Assembly (NCBI RefSeq): GCF_044324785.1
Contig: NZ_CP172127.1
Strand: one strand, 5' to 3'
Source of the DNA: Escherichia coli
GTDB lineage: Bacteria; Pseudomonadota; Gammaproteobacteria; Enterobacterales; Enterobacteriaceae
Length of the DNA stretch: 64,000 nt
Shown here: positions 37 to 33,734 of the stretch, piece after piece
Layout of the letters: the number at the start of each line of letters is the position of its first letter
Numbering within the stretch: the first letter of the stretch is position 1
Position numbers and translations under genes: made by a program
Notes under the pieces: model-generated
What the model saw: only the letters and a program-made list of their open reading frames with translations
What the model was told of the DNA's origin: nothing
Databases searched by the model: none

Positions 37-1395
37 ATGACTCAACGACGTGATTTACAAGCACTGATCGATGCTGCTCCGGTCGGCAAGATGCAGTGGC
101 GCGTTATCATCTGCTGTTTTCTGGTGGTAATGCTCGATGGTTTTGACACCGCGGCTATCGGCTTTATCGCCCCTGATATTCGCACTCACTGGCAACTCAC
201 CGCAGGCGATCTCGCCCCGCTTTTTGGCGCGGGTCTGCTGGGGTTAACCGCAGGCGCACTGCTTTGTGGTCCGTTGTCCGATCGCTTTGGCCGCAAACGT
301 GTGATTGAGCTGTGCGTCTTTTTGTTTGGCGCGTTAAGCCTCGCCTCGGCTTTCTCACCGGATCTGCAAACGCTGGTATTCCTGCGTTTCCTCACCGGCC
401 TTGGGCTGGGTGGCGCGATGCCAAACACAATTACCATGACCTCGGAATATCTGCCTGCCCGCCGCCGCGGCGCGCTGGTGACGCTGATGTTTTGCGGCTT
501 TACCCTGGGTTCGGCGTTTGGCGGGATTGTCAGCGCGCAGCTGGTGCCGGTGATTGGCTGGCACGGGATCCTGGTGTTGGGTGGCGTATTACCGCTGATG
601 CTGTTTGTTGCACTGCTGGTGGTTCTGCCGGAATCGCCACGCTGGCAGGTGCGCCGCCAGCTACCCCAGGCGGTGATTGCGAAAACCGTCAGCGCCATCA
701 CCCGCGAGCGTTATGTCGATACCCACTTTTATCTCATTGAATCAGCCTCCGTTACAAAAGGCAGCATTCGTCAACTGTTTATGGGGCGTCAGTTACCCAT
801 CACGTTGATGCTGTGGGTGGTGTTCTTTATGAGCTTGCTGATTATTTACCTGCTCTCAAGCTGGATGCCAACGCTGCTCAACCATCGCGGCATCGACCTG
901 CAACATGCCTCCTGGGTTACCGCCGCGTTCCAGATTGGCGGTACGTTGGGCGCGCTGGCGCTGGGCGTGCTGATGGATAAGTTCAATCCTTTCCGCGTAC
1001 TGGCGCTGAGCTATGCCATAGGCGCTGTATGCATCGTGATGATTGGCTTAAGCCAGGACGGATTATGGCTAATGGCGCTGGCGATTTTCGGCACCGGCAT
1101 TGGCATCAGCGGATCGCAGGTGGGGCTGAATGCGCTGACCGCAACACTTTATCCAACACAAAGTCGCGCCACGGGCGTGAGCTGGTCAAACGCCGTGGGC
1201 CGCTGCGGCGCGATTGTTGGCTCGCTGTCTGGCGGCGTGATGATGGCGATGAATTTCTCTTTCGACACCCTGTTTTTCATTATCGCTGTGCCCGCGGCGA
1301 TCAGTGCGGTGATGTTAACCCTGCTGATCACCGTGGTTCGCCAGTCGACCTCTGTCCCTGACTCACTGCCTCACGCAGGTGTTGTGAACGAATAA
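37..1395 (+). CDS. mhbT: MFS transporter, aromatic-acid uptake (3-hydroxybenzoate/gentisate transporter, MhbT-like)
   Basis: 452-aa ORF with MFS signature loop (LSDRFGRKR) and multiple hydrophobic spans; first gene of a T-D-H-I-M ordered gentisate cluster; ATG at 37. Confidence 0.75.
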
Positions 1396-1406
1396 GGAGC
1401 ATCCCA

Positions 1407-2435
1407 ATGACTGATAACAATCAAAATAGCCGCGAGCAATTTTATCAGCATATTTCCGGGCAAAACCTGACCCCGCTGTGGGAGTCACTGCACCATCTGG
1501 TGCCAAAAACGCCCAACGCTAACTGTGCGCCAGCGTACTGGAATTATCAGGAGATCCGCCCGCTGCTGCTGGAGAGCGGCAGCCTGATTGGCGCGAAAGA
1601 AGCCGTGCGCCGCGTGCTGGTGCTGGAAAACCCGGCGCTGCGCGGGCAGTCTTCCATCACCGCGACTTTATATGCCGGTTTGCAACTGATCATGCCGGGC
1701 GAAGTGGCACCGAGTCATCGCCATAACCAGTCGGCGCTGCGTTTTATTGTTGAAGGTAAAGGGGCATTCACCGCCGTTGATGGCGAACGCACGCCAATGA
1801 ATGAGGGCGATTTTATCCTGACCCCGCAGTGGCGCTGGCACGATCACGGTAACCCTGGCGACGAACCGGTTATCTGGCTCGATGGGCTGGATCTGCCATT
1901 AGTGAACACTCTGGGCTGCGGTTTTGCCGAAGATTACCCGGAGGAGCAACAACCAGTAACGCGTAAAGAGGGCGATTACCTGCCGCGTTACGCTGCCAAT
2001 ATGTTGCCGCTGTGCCATCAGACCGGGAACTCCTCGCCCATCTTTAACTACCGTTATGACCGTAGCCGCGAAGTGCTACACGATTTAACCCGCCTGGGCG
2101 ATGCCGATGAGTGGGATGGCTACAAAATGCGCTACGTCAACCCGGTCACCGGTGGCTATCCGATGCCGTCGATGGGCGCTTTCCTGCAACTGCTGCCGAA
2201 AGGGTTTGCCTCACGCGTGGCGCGTACCACTGACAGCACCATCTACCATGTGGTGGAAGGTAGCGGGCAGGTCACTATCGGCAATGAAACCTTCAGCTTT
2301 AGTGCAAAAGATATCTTCGTGGTGCCGACCTGGCACGGCGTGTCGTTCCAGACCACGCAAGATACCGTTTTATTTAGTTTTTCGGACAGACCGGTACAAG
2401 AAGCCCTGGGGCTGTTCCGCGAAGCGCGTTATTAA
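1407..2435 (+). CDS. mhbD: gentisate 1,2-dioxygenase (bicupin)
   Basis: 342-aa ORF, cupin His motifs (HRH, WRWHDH), AAGGAG SD 9 nt upstream of ATG; position in cluster. Confidence 0.8.
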
Positions 2436-3818: not shown

Positions 3819-5012
3819 ATGACTAAAGTGACACGCGCAGTAATTGTGGGAGGCGGGATCGGCGGTGCGGCAACTGCGTTGTCACTGGCCCGCCAGGGGA
3901 TCAAAGTGGTGCTGCTGGAAAAGGCGCATGAGATCGGTGAGATTGGCGCAGGTATCCAGTTGGGGCCAAATGCGTTTTCGGCGTTGGATAGCCTCGGCGT
4001 CGGCGAAATCGCCCGCCAGCGCGCGGTATTCACCGATCACATCACCATGATGGATGCGGTAAACGCCGAAGAAGTGGTGCGCATTGAAACCGGTCAGGCC
4101 TTTCGCGATCATTTCGGCGGCCCTTACGCGGTGATCCACCGGGTTGATATTCACGCCTCGGTGTGGGAAGCGGTACTGACGCATCCGGACGTGGAATATC
4201 ACACCTCCACCAACGTCGTGGATATTCGCGAGACAGAAGACGATGTCACCGTTTTCGACGATCGCGGCAATAGTTGGATCGGCGATATTCTGATTGGCTG
4301 TGACGGCGTGAAGTCAGTGGTGCGCCAGAGCTTATTGGGCGATGCGCCGCGTGTCACCGGGCATGTGGTCTACCGTGCGGTTATCGATTGTGCCGATATG
4401 CCGGAAGATTTGCGCATTAACGCACCAGTACTGTGGGCGGGGCCGTGCTGTCACTTGGTGCATTACCCTTTACGCGGCGGCAAGCAGTATAACCTGGTGG
4501 TGACATTCCACAGCCGCCAGCAGGAAGAGTGGGGCGTGAAGGATGGCAGTAAAGAGGAAGTGCTCTCTTACTTTGAAGGGATTCACCCCCGTCCGCGCCA
4601 GATGCTGGATAAACCGACCTCCTGGCGACGCTGGTCAACCGCCGACCGTGAACCGGTAGCGAAGTGGGGAACGAAGCGCATTACGCTGGTGGGCGATGCG
4701 GCCCATCCGGTGGCGCAGTATATGGCGCAGGGTGCCTGTATGGCGCTGGAAGACGCGGTAACACTGGGTAAGGCGCTGGCGCAGTGTGAGGGTGATGCGG
4801 CACAAGCCTTTGCGCTGTATGAGTCGGTACGTATTCCGCGCACCGCGCGCATCGTCTGGTCGACCCGTGAAATGGGGCGGGTTTATCATGCCGCAGGAGT
4901 AGAGCGCCAGGTACGTAACCTGTTGTGGAAAGGGAAATCGCAGGCAGAGTTTTACCGCGGCATGGAGTGGCTGTACGGCTGGAAAGAAGATAACTGTTTG
5001 CAACCACGCTGA
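3819..5012 (+). CDS. mhbM: 3-hydroxybenzoate 6-hydroxylase (FAD-dependent monooxygenase, salicylate hydroxylase family)
   Basis: 397-aa ORF with N-terminal FAD fingerprint [11 protein letters not shown] and DAAH motif; last gene of cluster. Confidence 0.75.
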
Positions 5013-7278: not shown

Positions 7279-7538
7279 CACAAGGTCAGTCAATCTGACG
7301 AGGTGCTGAAAAAAAGTTAACGTCCTGGTAGGTGCAGGTGACTTCAGAAGATGGCAAAACAGGTAAGACCGCAGGCAGGATACACCGAGAGGTAACAAGG
7401 GCAAGTTAGCCCGTAGAGGATGATTGGTACCTGCCTGGCGGATTTCATCATGGTTCGGGATAAAAATCCCATCAGAAACCGGATATATGGCTGCACCTAC
7501 CCGTTTTATTACATAACTGAAGAAAGCATTGCATTCCG
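7279..7538 (+). ncRNA. candidate IS-encoded structured ncRNA (bridge/seek-RNA-like) in 3' non-coding end of the IS
   Basis: 260-nt non-coding stretch between transposase stop and right IR containing 11-bp long-range inverted repeat GGTAGGTGCAG (7327-7337) / CTGCACCTACC (7491-7501). Confidence 0.3.
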
Positions 7539-7779
7539 GGAGCGTCCATATATGTTACCTCGCGCCCGACCCGGTAGCCGTAAGGGATAAGCCGAGGGCA
7601 CCGCGCAGCGGCGATTTTGTTCGCCAGAGCCCGGGGGTGCAGGGGGCGGCGGCGATTGGCCGCCCCCTGCGCGCTCCTTGCGCCAGTGATTATATGAAGC
7701 AATGCACATGACAGGAGCGCAACAGGATGAGAGACTGAAATATTCTCGTTATTTTCGGATCTGATGACATTAATTAATT

Positions 7780-7863
7780 TTAAAATATCATCTTAAATAC
7801 GCCAGTCACCACCAGTAGCCCAATCAGGAAAATAATCAATACAGCCCAGAGTATAATTTTCAT
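7780..7863 (-). CDS. yohP: small membrane protein YohP (27 aa)
   Basis: Manual translation of minus strand gives MKIILWAVLIIFLIGLLVVTGVFKMIF; below ORF-track length cut-off. Confidence 0.85.
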   Translation of the reverse strand: MKIILWAVLIIFLIGLLVVTGVFKMIF

Positions 7864-8086
7864 TGGCGTTCCTTTATTTGTGAGTGCTGAATAAGTATAG
7901 GAAAAAACGAAGTCCTTTGCCGTTATCCATAAACGATTAAGATAAATCGGAAGATATCATTCACTTAGTGTATATTTTTCTGGATATGTCATATTATTGC
8001 CACTGATGTTTTGCCACGCGAAACTAAAAAATATATCGCAACACACGGTAATCTCCGCGCACCTTTTCTTACCTGATTATTCCCCC

Positions 8087-11791: not shown

Positions 11792-11964
11792 AAAGTTCTT
11801 TTGTGTTGCATTGCTGGCGTAAATGTCAGCAATGCAGCATTTCCTCACGATTCTCCTTTGACGATCGCACTTTTTGCTCGTTATGATGGCGTCGCTAGCC
11901 TCAGTAAATCCTTACTCCGGCGGTGCGCAACCTGTGCGCGTGAACCACTATCTGAATGCTCATC

Positions 11965-12897
11965 ATGCCGAAATTTCGAGTTTCTTTATTTAGCCTGGCC
12001 CTGATGCTGGCTGTGCCTTTTGCACCGCAGGCCGTTGCGAAAACGGCAGCCGCTACCACCGCTTCACAGCCGGAAATTGCCTCCGGTAGCGCGATGATTG
12101 TTGATCTGAATACCAACAAAGTGATCTATTCGAACCACCCGGATCTGGTGCGTCCGATTGCGTCTATCAGCAAATTAATGACCGCGATGGTCGTGCTGGA
12201 TGCGCGACTGCCGCTGGATGAAAAACTAAAAGTGGATATCAGCCAGACGCCGGAGATGAAAGGGGTCTATTCGCGCGTACGACTGAATAGCGAAATCAGC
12301 CGTAAAGATATGCTGTTGCTGGCGCTGATGTCTTCAGAAAACCGCGCGGCGGCAAGCCTTGCGCACCATTATCCCGGTGGTTACAAAGCCTTTATTAAGG
12401 CGATGAATGCGAAAGCGAAATCGCTCGGAATGAACAACACGCGCTTTGTTGAACCGACCGGATTGTCGGTGCATAACGTTTCAACCGCCCGTGACTTAAC
12501 CAAACTGCTCATTGCCAGCAAACAATATCCGTTGATCGGGCAGTTAAGTACTACCCGGGAAGATATGGCAACCTTCTCTAACCCGACGTATACGCTGCCG
12601 TTCCGCAATACTAATCATCTGGTGTATCGCGATAACTGGAATATCCAGCTAACCAAAACCGGCTTTACCAATGCGGCGGGCCATTGTCTGGTGATGCGTA
12701 CGGTTATCAATAATAAACCGGTGGCGCTGGTAGTGATGGATGCGTTTGGCAAATATACCCATTTTGCCGATGCCAGCCGCCTGCGTACCTGGATTGAGAC
12801 CGGTAAAGTGATGCCTGTTCCGGCAGCAGCGTTGAGCTATAAAAAACAAAAAGCCGCCCAGATGGCGGCGGCGGGGCAGACGGCGCAGAACGATTAA
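11965..12897 (+). CDS. pbpG: D-alanyl-D-alanine endopeptidase PBP7
   Basis: 310 aa, signal peptide [25 protein letters not shown], SxxK motif SISKLMT. Confidence 0.9.
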
Positions 12898-12904
12898 GTG
12901 AAGT

Positions 12905-12937
12905 ACGGATGGCGATACTCTGCCATCCGTAATTTTT
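12905..12937. terminator. bidirectional rho-independent terminator between convergent pbpG and dld
   Basis: Perfect 9-bp inverted repeat ACGGATGGC...GCCATCCGT followed by AATTTTT. Confidence 0.6.
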
Positions 12938-14651
12938 ACTCCACTTCCTGCCAGTTTTTCCGCTTACTGGTTTTACCGATCCCCGGATTCATACTGTTGG
13001 TCGGATCGTTCTCGCGATAAAACTTCTGCAACGTCTCCGGTGCTTTATACAAATGACCGACGTTATGCTCGGCAGGGTATTGCGCGCCGCGCTGCTGTAG
13101 CAGTTCCAGCATCTGTTCTTTCAACGCATGCACATCCACGCCTTTTTTAACGATGTAATCCTGATGGAAGACATAGCACATAAAATGGCCGTAATAGAGC
13201 TTGTGCACCAGTTGGCTGTCGATCTCCGGCGGTAAATGCTCATACCACTCGGTGTCGTTACGCCGCAGAGCGATATCCAGTGCCAGAATGTCTTCGACTT
13301 CATCGGAATGCACCGCCTGATAACGAATTGCTGCGCCCGCAGCGGCGAAACGGTGTAAAAACGCTTTGCTACCTTCCTCCGGCGTACAGACAAAGAAATC
13401 GCCTTCGGCCTGTTTGAAATAATCCACCAGCCACGATTTGGCTTCACCGACGCCATCGCCCGCCATTTTTAACAGCAGATGATGTTCGTATTTATCGCGC
13501 CAGTTTTTCATGCGCGGCGGTAAATGGCTGGGGAACAGGTGACCGAATTTTTGCATCGCACGGTCGGTAAAATGCGGACGGAAGAATTTCACTTTCTCCA
13601 GCATCGCATCGGTGCGCCCCTTGAGATTAAAGAAGAACGGCATCTTGTCGGTGCCTAACTTATCAATCATCAGGAAGGTGTCTTTGCCGTATTTTTCCGC
13701 AATATCGTAGATATCCCGGTGCATATATTCCCCGGCAACCGGCAGATTTTCGAAATTAGCCAGAATATGACGGCGGATTTCTGTCAGTACTTCCGGCTGG
13801 TTGGTGCCGATATAAAACACCTGCTGATTTTTTTCCGCTTCGAAGGTATCAAGACGTACCGCAAAGACGGCCAGCTTCCCGGCGCAACCAGAAGATTCAA
13901 ATAACCGATCCGGATCGGCGTTATAACGTGCGGGCGTGTCGGCTTCAATATCACGAACGCGGTGGACATAGTCATAATCGTGGGCGTGACGACCATCGTG
14001 GCGCACATCGTCATCTTTGATGCGATCGTCATCCAGCTTGCTAAGGATCTGCTCCGGCGTTTCGCCCAGATCAATCCCCAGATGGTTCACCAGCGTCAGT
14101 TTGCCGTCTTCATTTATACGCGCGAATAACGACATTTCGGTATACGCCGGGCCACGCTGCACCAGCGAGCCGCCGGAGTTGTTACAAATACCGCCGATGA
14201 CCGATGCGCCTATACACGATGATCCAATCACCGAGTGCGGTTCGCGTCCCAGCGGTTTGAGGGCTTTTTCCAGCGAATAAAGCGTGGTGCCCGGGTAGGC
14301 CAGCACCTGTTCGCCCTTGCCGAGAACGTGCAGCTTGTCGAGACGCAGGGTGCTGATGATCACGATATCGCGATCATAGTCGTTACCGTTTGGCGTCGAT
14401 CCTTCGGTCAGGCCTGTATTGGCAGCCTGCATCAGAATAATTTTGTCGGCGGTGACGCAGGCTTTCAGCACCCGCCACAATTCCAGTAGTGAGCCAGGGA
14501 AAACGACAGCCAGCGCGTCGCCCTGACCAGAACGGAAGCCCTTGCGATAGCGGGCCGTTTTTGCGGGATCGGTGAGCAGGTGTGAATGACCGACCAGACG
14601 GGCAAGTTCATTCAAAAAGGCTTTATTATCAGTTGTTGTCATGGAAGACAT
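12936..14651 (-). CDS. dld: FAD-dependent D-lactate dehydrogenase
   Basis: 571 aa from internal ATG (MSSMTTTDNKAFLNELARLVG). Confidence 0.9.
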   Translation of the reverse strand: MSSMTTTDNKAFLNELARLVGHSHLLTDPAKTARYRKGFRSGQGDALAVVFPGSLLELWRVLKACVTADKIILMQAANTGLTEGSTPNGNDYDRDIVIISTLRLDKLHVLGKGEQVLAYPGTTLYSLEKALKPLGREPHSVIGSSCIGASVIGGICNNSGGSLVQRGPAYTEMSLFARINEDGKLTLVNHLGIDLGETPEQILSKLDDDRIKDDDVRHDGRHAHDYDYVHRVRDIEADTPARYNADPDRLFESSGCAGKLAVFAVRLDTFEAEKNQQVFYIGTNQPEVLTEIRRHILANFENLPVAGEYMHRDIYDIAEKYGKDTFLMIDKLGTDKMPFFFNLKGRTDAMLEKVKFFRPHFTDRAMQKFGHLFPSHLPPRMKNWRDKYEHHLLLKMAGDGVGEAKSWLVDYFKQAEGDFFVCTPEEGSKAFLHRFAAAGAAIRYQAVHSDEVEDILALDIALRRNDTEWYEHLPPEIDSQLVHKLYYGHFMCYVFHQDYIVKKGVDVHALKEQMLELLQQRGAQYPAEHNVGHLYKAPETLQKFYRENDPTNSMNPGIGKTSKRKNWQEVE

Positions 14652-32179: not shown

Positions 32180-32290
32180 ATATTCATCCCTGAAATGTAT
32201 TAATGAAATAAACGATATTTTACGCGCAATAAATGTTTGGCGCATTAGTTGTTTGAGCGAAAAATATCTGGAAAGCAGATCACAGTAAAT

Positions 32291-32371
32291 AAAAAAACCT
32301 GCTGGTGAGGCAGGTTCTTTTATTTACTACAGTGACGCTAACTTGCTGATTGTGCAACATTTCGTACCAAC
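32291..32371 (-). ncRNA. orzO: OrzO-like antitoxin sRNA (copy 1), ~81 nt
   Basis: Minus-strand promoter (-10 TATAAT at 32383-32378, -35 TTGCAA at 32406-32401, 17-nt spacer); terminator hairpin AACCTGC-TGGTGAG-GCAGGTT 32296-32316 followed by U-tract on minus strand; 5' 18 nt complementary to toxin 5' UTR 32520-32537. Confidence 0.6.
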
Positions 32372-32377
32372 GAATAA

Positions 32378-32428
32378 ATTATAACCATATCCACACTCCA
32401 TTGCAATTCAGTGAATGAGATTTATAAT
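32378..32428. promoter_or_regulatory. divergent sigma70 promoters of zor copy 1 and its sRNA sharing one palindromic -35 hexamer TTGCAA
   Basis: Plus strand: TTGCAA (32401-32406)-16 nt-TATAAT (32423-32428); minus strand: same TTGCAA-17 nt-TATAAT (32383-32378). Confidence 0.55.
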
Positions 32429-32609
32429 CCTGCCCGTTGGGAGGTTGTGCCGGATCGGACCAATTTTAAGTCCTGGCTACCGGACGGGTGGTGCCGCAGG
32501 CGGTGCCCTGATCCGGAGAGCAACGTTTCGTACCAACATACGTAAACCAGTATCGACAGGCAGTGTAAGGGTAAGGTGCTGGTGTTGCGCTCCTTAATAA
32601 GGAGAGCGG

Positions 32610-32699
32610 ATGGACACGCTGACACAAAAGTTAACCGTGCTCATTGCTATACTGGAGCTATTAGTGGCTCTGTTACGGTTGATTGATTTGTTGAAGTAA
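32610..32699 (+). CDS. zorO: type I toxin, 29-aa hydrophobic peptide ZorO/ZorP family (copy 1)
   Basis: Manual translation: MDTLTQKLTVLIAILELLVALLRLIDLLK; AAGGAG SD 5 nt upstream; ~175-nt 5' UTR from predicted TSS ~32436; O versus P assignment between the two copies is uncertain. Confidence 0.8.
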   Translation: MDTLTQKLTVLIAILELLVALLRLIDLLK

Positions 32700-32720
32700 C
32701 GGGCAAATTGAAACGCATCT

Positions 32721-32745
32721 AAGGGGGAAAACCGCTTCCCCCTTT
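32721..32745 (+). terminator. rho-independent terminator of zor copy 1
   Basis: AAGGGGGAAAACCGCTTCCCCCTTT hairpin 22 nt after stop. Confidence 0.6.
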
Positions 32746-32897
32746 AATAAAATGATTACTGTTTTTATTAATTCATCATATAACTCATTTTTATTTATAA
32801 ATTCATCGATTTTATATTCAACGTACCATTTGACCGGGATGTGAATATTTATGGTGGGCTATTGGCAAAAAATATCTGGAAAGTAGATCGCAGAAAA

Positions 32898-32979
32898 TAA
32901 AAAAACCTGCTGGTGAGGCAGGTTCTTTTATTTACTACTTTGATGTTAAGTTACTGATAGTGCAACATGGCATCTCAAC
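32898..32979 (-). ncRNA. orzP: Orz-like antitoxin sRNA (copy 2), ~82 nt
   Basis: Minus-strand -10 at 32991-32986, -35 TTGCAA 33014-33009; terminator hairpin 32904-32924 with U-tract; 5' region complementary to copy-2 toxin UTR 33126-33146. Confidence 0.6.
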
Positions 32980-32985
32980 GAACGA

Positions 32986-33036
32986 ATTATAACCACCTCT
33001 GGACAGTGTTGCAATTAAGATAATGAGATTTATAAT
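32986..33036. promoter_or_regulatory. divergent promoters of zor copy 2 and its sRNA sharing palindromic TTGCAA
   Basis: TTGCAA 33009-33014; plus-strand TATAAT 33031-33036; minus-strand TATAAT 32991-32986. Confidence 0.55.
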
Positions 33037-33217
33037 CCTGACTGTTGGGAAGTTGCGCCGGATCGAACCCATTTCAAGTCCTGGCTACCGGACGGGTGGT
33101 GCCGCAGGTAGTGCTCTGATCCGGAGTGCAACATGGCGACTCAACAAACGTAAACCAGTGTCGACAGGCAGTGTAAGGGTAAGGTGCTGGTGTTGCGCTC
33201 CTTAATAAGGAGAGCGG

Positions 33218-33307
33218 ATGGACACGCTGACACAAAAGTTAACCGTGCTCATTGCTGTACTGGAGCTATTAGTGGCTCTGTTACGGTTGATTGATTTGTT
33301 GAAGTAA
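33218..33307 (+). CDS. zorP: type I toxin, 29-aa hydrophobic peptide ZorO/ZorP family (copy 2)
   Basis: Manual translation: MDTLTQKLTVLIAVLELLVALLRLIDLLK (one I-to-V difference from copy 1); same SD and UTR architecture. Confidence 0.8.
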   Translation: MDTLTQKLTVLIAVLELLVALLRLIDLLK

Positions 33308-33326
33308 CGGGCAAATTGAAACGCAT

Positions 33327-33734
33327 CTAAGGGGGAATACCGTTTCCCCCTTTAATAAAGCTATACTCGTCATACTTCAAGTTGCATGTGCTGCGACTTG
33401 AATTATCTAGAGTATATAATTCTATTTGTTGGTTGAATATATTCTGTAGTTCACAATTAAAAATTACTATTACAGGTTCAGGTGATTCGCCTCGTAATTT
33501 TTGCTCATCAATAAACTCATCTCTTATATAAATCAACGCATCATTTATTAGCGGGTCGACATCTTCTCGATCACGTTGATGAAATGTTGGACGTAGCCGG
33601 AATCGCTCCAGCCGGTAGACGGAGCCTGTAAATAATTCAGAGCGTTTATGGATCTCAAGCCTGAAGGAAAACGGCTCTTCAGGTACAGGGGCCTCATAGT
33701 CGTAAATAGTGACCAGCTCTTTTTGCACGATCAT
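33327..33734 (-). CDS. yehK: hypothetical protein (YehK-like), 135 aa
   Basis: ORF in the position of yehK downstream of yehI; identity by position only; 3' end overlaps zor copy-2 terminator. Confidence 0.45.
   Translation of the reverse strand: MIVQKELVTIYDYEAPVPEEPFSFRLEIHKRSELFTGSVYRLERFRLRPTFHQRDREDVDPLINDALIYIRDEFIDEQKLRGESPEPVIVIFNCELQNIFNQQIELYTLDNSSRSTCNLKYDEYSFIKGGNGIPP
33329..33353 (+). terminator. rho-independent terminator of zor copy 2
   Basis: AAGGGGGAATACCGTTTCCCCCTTT hairpin. Confidence 0.6.

Follow-up and report, generated by a model that had tools for sequence, protein, structure and literature searches.

The type I toxin-antitoxin modules closest to the locus reported here are zorO-orzO and zorP-orzP of E. 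coli O157:H7 EDL933. The zor/orz genes were discovered between yehL and yehK/yehI, with the starts of both the sRNAs and the mRNAs mapped by primer extension (Fozo 2010, PMC2887945). The EDL933 zorO gene is toxic if overproduced, and its rescue by OrzO is RNase III-dependent (Wen 2014, PMC3919570); the sRNA binds the 3' portion of a region of the zorO mRNA named 'exposed after processing' (EAP), blocks translation and triggers RNase III-dependent decay (PMC3919570, PMC5397157). [quoted passage not shown]

The question of how two such paralogous pairs are kept apart has also been addressed experimentally, and OrzO was found to repress zorO where OrzP does not. Swapping nucleotides +9..+11 of the sRNA (termed V1) switches this specificity, compensatory mutations in zorO restore repression, and +9 is the most critical single position (Wen 2014, PMC3919570), with repression following an empirical rule of at least 15 continuous base pairs, or at least 17 base pairs with one internal mismatch (PMC3919570). 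Toxicity, repression, the sufficiency of the sRNA 5' end, the need for RNase III, target specificity and the effect of the V1 swap have thus all been shown in EDL933 for the O/P pair. A survey published in 2024 described a third type, zorQ/orzQ, defined by a BLASTn bit score above 650 to the authors' query and with A20S as the common toxin variant; it reported that the pairing region 'was quite variable', that this 'may prevent crosstalk', and that 99.8% of Orz sRNAs are able to pair with their cognate zor (PMC11264685).

Here, we analyse a window of 64,000 nucleotides of E. coli DNA (the window being the whole stretch under study), in which the region between yehL and yehI consists of two tandem zor/orz modules, a 608-bp unit at 32257-32864 being followed directly by a second at 32865-33472. 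Each module contains an Orz sRNA gene on the minus strand and, on the plus strand, a gene for a 29-aa Zor toxin with a 174-nt 5' UTR (Table 1), and the yehL-yehI context is common to annotated E. coli genomes, among them N3, H19 and O157:H7 SS52. In sequence the window is 100% identical to E. coli strain N3. We are highly confident that the best explanation of this locus is an O-type module followed by a Q-type module, in which repression by either sRNA is predicted to be confined to its cognate mRNA. It resembles the EDL933 system in location, 608-bp architecture, promoters and UTR length, but where O157 and H19 carry P then O, this strain carries O then Q, with no P-type unit, and its O-type toxin has the substitution V14I.

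Table 1. Features of the two zor/orz modules, in window coordinates.
Feature	Coordinates	Strand	Details
orz sRNA gene, copy 1 (OrzO type, ~81 nt)	32291..32371	-	Rfam RF02083 and 5' sequence; +1 = 32371
orz terminator hairpin, copy 1	32296-32316	-	U-run next on the minus strand
OrzO 5' pairing segment, sRNA nt +1..+18	32354..32371	-	GCAACATTTCGTACCAAC (plus-strand letters)
OrzO target site in zor 5' UTR, +85..+102	32520..32537	+	GCAACGTTTCGTACCAAC; 73-90 nt 5' of ATG
Divergent promoter pair, copy 1	32378..32428	both	orz -10 32383-32378 (-); -35 TTGCAA 32401-32406; zor -10 TATAAT 32423-32428 (+)
zor mRNA 5' UTR, copy 1 (174 nt)	32436..32609	+	EAP/standby +73..+102 = 32508-32537; RBS AAGGAG +164..+169 = 32599-32604
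Zor toxin ORF, copy 1	32610..32699	+	MDTLTQKLTVLIAILELLVALLRLIDLLK; ZorO with V14I
zor terminator hairpin, copy 1	32721..32744	+	AAGGGGGAAAACCGCTTCCCCCTT; self-complementary
orz sRNA gene, copy 2 (most likely Q type)	32899..32979	-	+1 = 32979; 5' sequence GUUGAGAUGCCAUGUUGCAC; RF02083 91.7 bits
Copy-2 sRNA 5' pairing segment, nt +1..+20	32960..32979	-	GTGCAACATGGCATCTCAAC (plus-strand letters)
Copy-2 sRNA target site in 5' UTR, +83..+102	33126..33145	+	GTGCAACATGGCGACTCAAC
Divergent promoter pair, copy 2	32986..33036	both	orz -10 32991-32986 (-); -35 TTGCAA 33009-33014; zor -10 33031-33036 (+)
zor mRNA 5' UTR, copy 2 (174 nt)	33044..33217	+	By homology with copy 1, offset 608 bp
Zor toxin ORF, copy 2	33218..33307	+	MDTLTQKLTVLIAVLELLVALLRLIDLLK
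zor terminator hairpin, copy 2	33329..33352	+	Self-complementary

The sRNA genes are recognized in both units by the Rfam model RF02083 (OrzO-P), which matches the minus strand at full model length with 88.8 bits (32291-32364) and 91.7 bits (32899-32972), both above the gathering score of 60. Weaker Rfam matches to ohsC, STnc370 and the Thr and Trp leaders on the same minus-strand segments fall below their gathering scores and were rejected, being attributable to a terminator hairpin held in common, and a plus-strand OrzO-P match at 32211-32321 (25.2 bits) was likewise discarded as the terminator hairpin read backwards. A promoter scan found exactly two promoter-like sites per unit, one on each strand (10/12 matches per strand in copy 1), which have in common a single palindromic -35 element, TTGCAA; this element and the -10 TATAAT are conserved at more than 99% in the 2024 survey (PMC11264685). 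A scan of both 29-aa peptides against NCBIfam returned no family, a result that is uninformative for toxins so short and without models in that collection.

By its sequence, copy 1 is the published OrzO/zorO type. The 5' sequence of its sRNA, GUUGGUACGAAAUGUUGC, carries at +9..+11 the GAA published as V1 of OrzO, and both the sRNA end and the UTR site are identical to those of the O-type unit of O157:H7 SS52 (unit 2 of that strain), including the A/G difference that yields a U·G wobble. Once +1 of the mRNA is set at 32436, the published zor landmarks map exactly, that is, a UTR of 174 nt, the RBS at +164..+169 and the pairing site inside the EAP region, and in the predicted fold of this UTR the 5' end of the mRNA is paired with the EAP region. 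The minimum free energy fold of the copy-2 UTR lacks the corresponding 5'-end/EAP helix, which we take as a limit of single-sequence prediction.

Copy 2 most likely represents orzQ/zorQ, the third type in print (PMC11264685), an indirect assignment made because its sRNA end and UTR site are identical to those found in O45:H2 FWSEC0003 beside a toxin with A20S, the variant that defines ZorQ. An identification as OrzP was rejected, since the V1 triplet is GCC and not the ACG found at +9..+11 of the OrzP 5' end (GUUGGAACACGAUGUUGC; present in H19, SS52, ST131 and MG1655), and 5 of 18 positions differ from P. The toxin of copy 2 nevertheless departs from the ZorQ type in having Ala20, as in toxins encoded beside O-type orz genes, rather than Ser20; it is in fact identical to the toxin next to the O-type orz of O157:H7 SS52, from which the copy-1 toxin is one residue off (V14I).

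The mechanism proposed for each module follows that of the published system. A strong sigma-70 promoter on the minus strand would produce the Orz sRNA of about 81 nt, and a second promoter, built on the same palindromic -35 element, the zor mRNA with its long 5' UTR and hydrophobic 29-aa toxin. The first 18-20 nt of the sRNA are predicted to pair with UTR positions +83/85..+102, the 3' part of an EAP region that lies some 60 nt 5' of the sequestered RBS and would act as a putative standby site for ribosomes, and this pairing would block translation and send the mRNA into RNase III-dependent decay. Nucleotides +5..+11 of the sRNA, at the centre of the duplex, would then serve as a specificity code. 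By homology, the Q-type unit probably works in the same way as the O-type unit.

The initial annotation of this DNA had started from this complementarity; with orz and zor divergent, it necessarily takes the form of a plus-strand direct repeat, as the annotation had rightly seen. The four repeat sequences lie exactly where it had placed them, and the copy-1 pair forms, as described, an 18-bp duplex with one G-U pair: the two repeats differ once (A 32359 versus G 32525), giving a U·G at sRNA +13, and the duplex of 32354-32371 with 32520-32537 has a predicted energy of -31.3 kcal/mol. The copy-2 repeats carry two adjacent differences (AT 32972-32973 versus GA 33138-33139), so that 19 of the 20 positions pair in the duplex with 33126-33145 (-31.9 kcal/mol predicted), with a U·G at +8 and an A·A mismatch at +7 that was absent from the earlier account. 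The placement of the sRNA 5' end inside the repeated segment also holds, in that the published V1 triplets (GAA for OrzO, ACG for OrzP) fit a +1 at 32371 and the starts had been primer-extension mapped in the original study (Fozo 2010).

Selectivity of each sRNA for its own mRNA, the central proposal of that annotation, agrees with the published O/P specificity (Wen 2014) and with the energies that RNAduplex predicts when the 20 nt at the 5' end of each sRNA are paired with the full UTRs, the check that had been suggested; for the O×Q combination it is a prediction. OrzO gives -31.3 kcal/mol with zorO, -23.1 with zorP and -22.1 with zorQ; OrzP gives -18.9, -32.7 and -20.0, and OrzQ -15.7, -20.1 and -31.9, respectively. 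Every sRNA 5' end therefore favours its own UTR (-31 to -33 versus -16 to -23 kcal/mol), the cognate duplexes being some 9-16 kcal/mol more stable than the non-cognate ones among O, P and Q. When the empirical repression rule is applied to this strain, both cognate duplexes pass and both non-cognate duplexes fail, because the latter contain two internal loops each, and we infer from these models that the O and Q units do not cross-repress.

Two other accounts of the repeats bear directly on this selectivity. That they arose by chance or were left over from the duplication, and serve no interaction between RNAs, has a negligible probability: a tandem duplication does by itself create repeats, and nothing further speaks for this account, but the repeats in question lie within each unit, between sRNA gene and UTR, and not between units. 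Each pattern occurs at its own two sites only in the whole 64-kb window, even with up to 3 mismatches allowed, against expected chance matches of 0.03 and 0.00, and two matches were reached in 0/100 shuffles. Function is indicated by the Rfam matches, by conservation of promoters and terminators and by the published genetics, and the O-type rescue and compensatory-mutation experiments had already refuted an account of this kind. Improbable, though much less so, is a leaky or one-way network in which OrzO also represses the Q-type zor mRNA, in place of two insulated pairs. The duplex of OrzO with the Q-type UTR has about 16-17 bp (sRNA nt 1-5, 8-9 and 12-20 paired) and keeps the critical G:C at +9, and at -22.1 kcal/mol it is somewhat stronger than the OrzP × zorO duplex (-18.9 in the same calculation), which is non-repressing in experiments, so that some one-way leakage is possible; the published outcome, moreover, varies with sRNA dose and toxin induction level (Wen 2014, PMC3919570). 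Against this, the two internal loops of the OrzO × Q duplex place it outside the repression rule, OrzP × zorO gave no rescue at a comparable predicted energy (PMC3919570), and the reverse pair, the Q sRNA with zorO, reaches only -15.7 kcal/mol. No experiment on O×Q cross-repression was found in Fozo 2010, Wen 2014, Wen 2017 or the 2024 survey.

A rival that accepts the selectivity and disputes its cause holds that old paralogues or alleles drifted in the whole of their regulatory half, that selection acted only within each pair and favoured compensatory change, and that insulation followed automatically as a non-adaptive by-product; we consider this rather unlikely, although several observations lend it weight. 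The initial annotation had contrasted diverged pairing sites with a conserved coding sequence, and the contrast itself is real: the toxin ORFs differ, as stated, by one codon (1/90 nt, Ile14 versus Val14), while between the copies the sRNA segments differ at 5/18 positions and the UTR target sites at 6/18, figures that replace its count of about 8 in a 12-nt core. What does not stand is that the divergence is specific to the pairing sites, since neighbouring non-coding DNA is as diverged between the copies (orz body, 7/25; promoter spacers, 16/64), and the idea of a local divergence hotspot was rejected on these grounds; high divergence alone is therefore no proof of selection for insulation. 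The by-product account also draws on the age of the types, which predate the split of E. coli and E. whittamii, on the many genomes that have a single unit or only an orphan orzP (seen also in PMC11264685), and on a fourth sRNA variant, 'R' (GUUGGGGCGCCAUGUUGCAU, in FDAARGOS_1303), whose UTR site is identical to the Q site and whose predicted energy with that site is -32.2 kcal/mol, so that the types are not all mutually orthogonal. It sits poorly, however, with the behaviour of the sites within a type, where the comparison of E. coli with E. whittamii finds 0/18 differences in both pairing sites, with flanking DNA about 86.5% identical and changes in the adjoining non-coding segments (for example, 14/65 in the O-type promoter spacers). 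Same-type duplicates, furthermore, are almost never found: across 5426 complete E. coli genomes, counted by type-specific 72-74-mers (a 72-mer for Q), the O type is present in 1261, Q in 855 and P in 4696, yet O never occurs twice and Q occurs at 2 places in 2/855. Incomplete repression of a toxin, or titration of an sRNA away to another target, would also carry an obvious cost.

[quoted passage not shown] Among O, P and Q, sRNA nucleotides 5, 6, 9, 10 and 11 vary together with their UTR partners in such a way that Watson-Crick pairing is kept; at positions 8 and 13 only one of the two partners has changed, which results in G·U pairs. A single true mismatch is present in the duplexes of P, Q and R alike, always at sRNA +7, where O has none. 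The earlier suggestion that duplication was followed by co-variation of each sRNA/UTR pair is thus borne out at five positions, but as an ancient event rather than a recent one in this strain: E. whittamii has a tandem of P and O units in the syntenic position, whose pairing sites match the E. coli ones exactly, and the duplication and the divergence of types are therefore older than the species split.

Between the units of this strain, UTR +103 through the zor terminator is nearly identical (2/72 for UTR +103..+174, 1/90 for the coding sequence and 2/52 beyond it), as is the orz terminator (0/38), and the polymorphisms from UTR +103 onward do not follow type, which hints at exchange between units. 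Together with distant loci, these patterns lead us to a tentative model, which we hold to be possible but on balance doubtful, in which the zor/orz module is two evolutionary units, a specificity cassette (orz body to UTR +102) and a toxin half (UTR +103 to terminator), and in which, once the Serratia and Pluralibacter loci are included, zor/orz and dinQ/agrB form one family with a reprogrammable sRNA/UTR address. Within such a model the cassette may exist as a few discrete orthogonal types (O, P and Q, plus the R variant), older than the E. coli/E. whittamii split and with sites frozen per type, and the toxin half appears to be kept nearly identical and shuffled between units. Neither the two-unit model nor the link to dinQ/agrB is stated in the zor/orz papers of 2010, 2014, 2017 and 2024.

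The distant loci comprise a second locus in E. whittamii, one in a Pluralibacter metagenome-assembled genome and one in Serratia oryzae, and each retains, at the corresponding UTR position, an intra-locus repeat, of 19-33 nt. The sequences that pair there bear no relation to those of O, P and Q, and differences within the matched core are only transitions, giving G·U pairs. The Serratia oryzae locus has both a 20-mer of the zor UTR and an intra-locus repeat of 33 nt, and its toxin presumably resembles DinQ. A Robiginitalea match in the 20-mer scan had no surrounding similarity and was rejected as chance. Homologues had been reported as absent outside Escherichia and Shigella (Wen 2014, PMC3919570), with E. 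fergusonii added as a carrier (Fozo 2010, PMC2887945). The family as seen here reaches beyond these two genera and its specificity types are trans-specific, neither extension being found in the zor/orz papers of 2010-2024 apart from the addition of E. fergusonii by Fozo 2010.

The main finding is correct but already known, having been published in 2010, 2014, 2017 and 2024, because that work shows, for the O/P pair, each sRNA to repress only its own toxin mRNA. The locus, the sRNAs, 5'-end pairing, specificity set by a handful of nucleotides in the middle of the duplex, and population-level variation in the pairing region are all in print, and the value of the present case is as a method check, in which reading of the sequence alone recovered the correct mechanism. 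The common +7 mismatch and the trans-species age of the types were not found in Fozo 2010, Wen 2014, Wen 2017 or the 2024 survey.

Beyond its immediate relatives, the system is like tisB/istR-1, shoB/ohsC and dinQ/agrB in having a divergent sRNA whose 5' end pairs in a long UTR, far upstream of a sequestered RBS, and in the logic of an mRNA that is activated by 5' processing and read through a standby site (PMC5397157). The toxins and pairing sequences are different, and those loci are usually single-copy, so that discrimination between paralogues is not an issue in them, agrA/agrB excepted. A second point of comparison is ibs/Sib, where the Sib RNAs discriminate their cognate mRNA through short variable recognition segments, but are cis-encoded, antisense over their whole length, and equipped with two recognition domains. 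The Orz sRNAs, unlike Sib, are divergently encoded and recognize their target through one domain, by complementarity over only 18-20 nt. What the two systems have in common is the presence of several paralogous toxin/sRNA pairs in one genome (cited in Wen 2014, PMC3919570).

Comparison of 13 zor/orz units shows different patterns of variation in the two halves of the module. In the regulatory half all variable sites track the O, P or Q specificity type of the unit, whereas the toxin half, running from UTR +103 to the terminator and compared with the same segment in loci L002-L009, contains few polymorphic sites, and these do not track type. Because type is followed in one half but not in the other, this pattern points to exchange among units, by recombination or gene conversion, with the boundary lying close to UTR +102, although the sample is of 13 units only. 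At the syntenic yehL-yehI site, E. whittamii carries a P-type and an O-type unit in tandem, whose pairing sites show 0/18 differences from those of E. coli, despite flanks of only ~86.5% identity, and the types would therefore either predate the split of the two species or have passed between them.

The occurrence of each type was surveyed in 5426 complete E. coli genomes using type-specific 72-74-mers of orz. P-type orz was found at 4701 places in 4696 genomes, O-type at 1261 places in 1261 genomes and Q-type at 857 places in 855 genomes, such that duplicates of the same type are almost absent from the collection. In the two-unit genomes examined the types differed, being O+Q in the window strain, P+O in O157 and H19, and P+Q in O45:H2. 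K-12 MG1655 has kept an orphan P-type orz without a zor toxin, which has already been published as OrzPmg (PMC11264685).

Among the cognate duplexes, those of P, Q and R each contain one unpaired position, which in all three is sRNA nt +7 (A·G in P, A·A in Q and G·A in R), while in the O duplex this nucleotide is paired and a U·G is found at +13 instead. R is a fourth orz sRNA variant, from E. coli FDAARGOS_1303, whose unit has exactly the Q sequence at its UTR site; pairing of the R sRNA with Q-type mRNA (-32.2 kcal/mol) is therefore predicted to be as good as that of the Q sRNA.

In each unit of the window the divergent zor and orz promoters have a common -35 element, the palindromic hexamer TTGCAA, separated from the zor -10 by a 16-nt spacer and from the orz -10 by one of 17 nt; since a single hexamer serves both, the two promoters may compete for RNA polymerase. 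The zor mRNA and the Orz sRNAs all start with GUUGG. When the full-length copy-1 mRNA is folded in silico, its first ~21 nt pair with the 'exposed after processing' (EAP) region, sRNA target included, which fits the published sequestration of this region before 5' processing. As the predicted helix covers the target, the sRNA and the mRNA's own 5' end would use one common site.

A short dispersed repeat, presumably akin to part of the ERIC/IRU intergenic repeat, lies just beyond the zor terminator of copy 2. Its match to Rfam isrH is below threshold (22.6 bits, E = 0.0012). A 34-nt stretch of it is 100% identical to unrelated E. coli records, and 30 nt of it recur unchanged in Serratia oryzae; the whole-locus query had a median of 5 matching places per genome. 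A 135-aa ORF, annotated as 'hypothetical protein' in N3, the E. coli strain to which the window is 100% identical, sits where other strains have the 105-aa yehK, its 3' end extending into the repeat and the zor terminator of copy 2. In several other genomes yehK is annotated as frameshifted.

Features of the zor/orz units and compared loci
Feature	Location	Strand	Detail
Shared -35	32401-32406 (copy 1); 33009-33014 (copy 2)		TTGCAA
sRNA nt +7	32365 (copy 1); 32973 (copy 2)		other units compared: L002-L008
zor mRNA 5' end	32436-32456 (copy 1)
EAP region	32508-32537 (copy 1)
Toxin half	32538-32751 (copy 1); 33146-33359 (copy 2)
Dispersed repeat	33362-33418		30-nt identity at L011 4010-4039
135-aa ORF	33327-33734	minus
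R unit, FDAARGOS_1303	L004 ~1500-1960		sRNA 5' end GUUGGGGCGCCAUGUUGCAU
Orphan orz, MG1655	L010 ~1500-1690
Tandem P+O units, E. whittamii	L016 ~11850-13000	minus (of locus)
Module, E. whittamii second locus	L015 ~1230-1790		toxin MDTLTHKLIVLIAVLELLLALLRLIDLLK
Module, Pluralibacter MAG	L014 ~440-1000		toxin MDTLTHKLVVLIAALELLLALLRLIDLLK
Module, Serratia oryzae	L011 ~7350-7900		toxin VKTLIDKVLIVLKALVALLELIRQFID

According to the 2024 survey, no relationship between zor and dinQ had been proposed (PMC11264685). Searching with a 20-mer conserved in the zor UTR retrieved zor/orz-like modules beyond E. coli and Shigella, from a second E. whittamii locus, a Pluralibacter MAG and Serratia oryzae, each with its own direct repeat of 19-33 nt between sRNA gene and UTR, the sequences of which bear no relation to the O, P or Q pairing sequences. 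The toxin of the S. oryzae module is one that we take to resemble DinQ.
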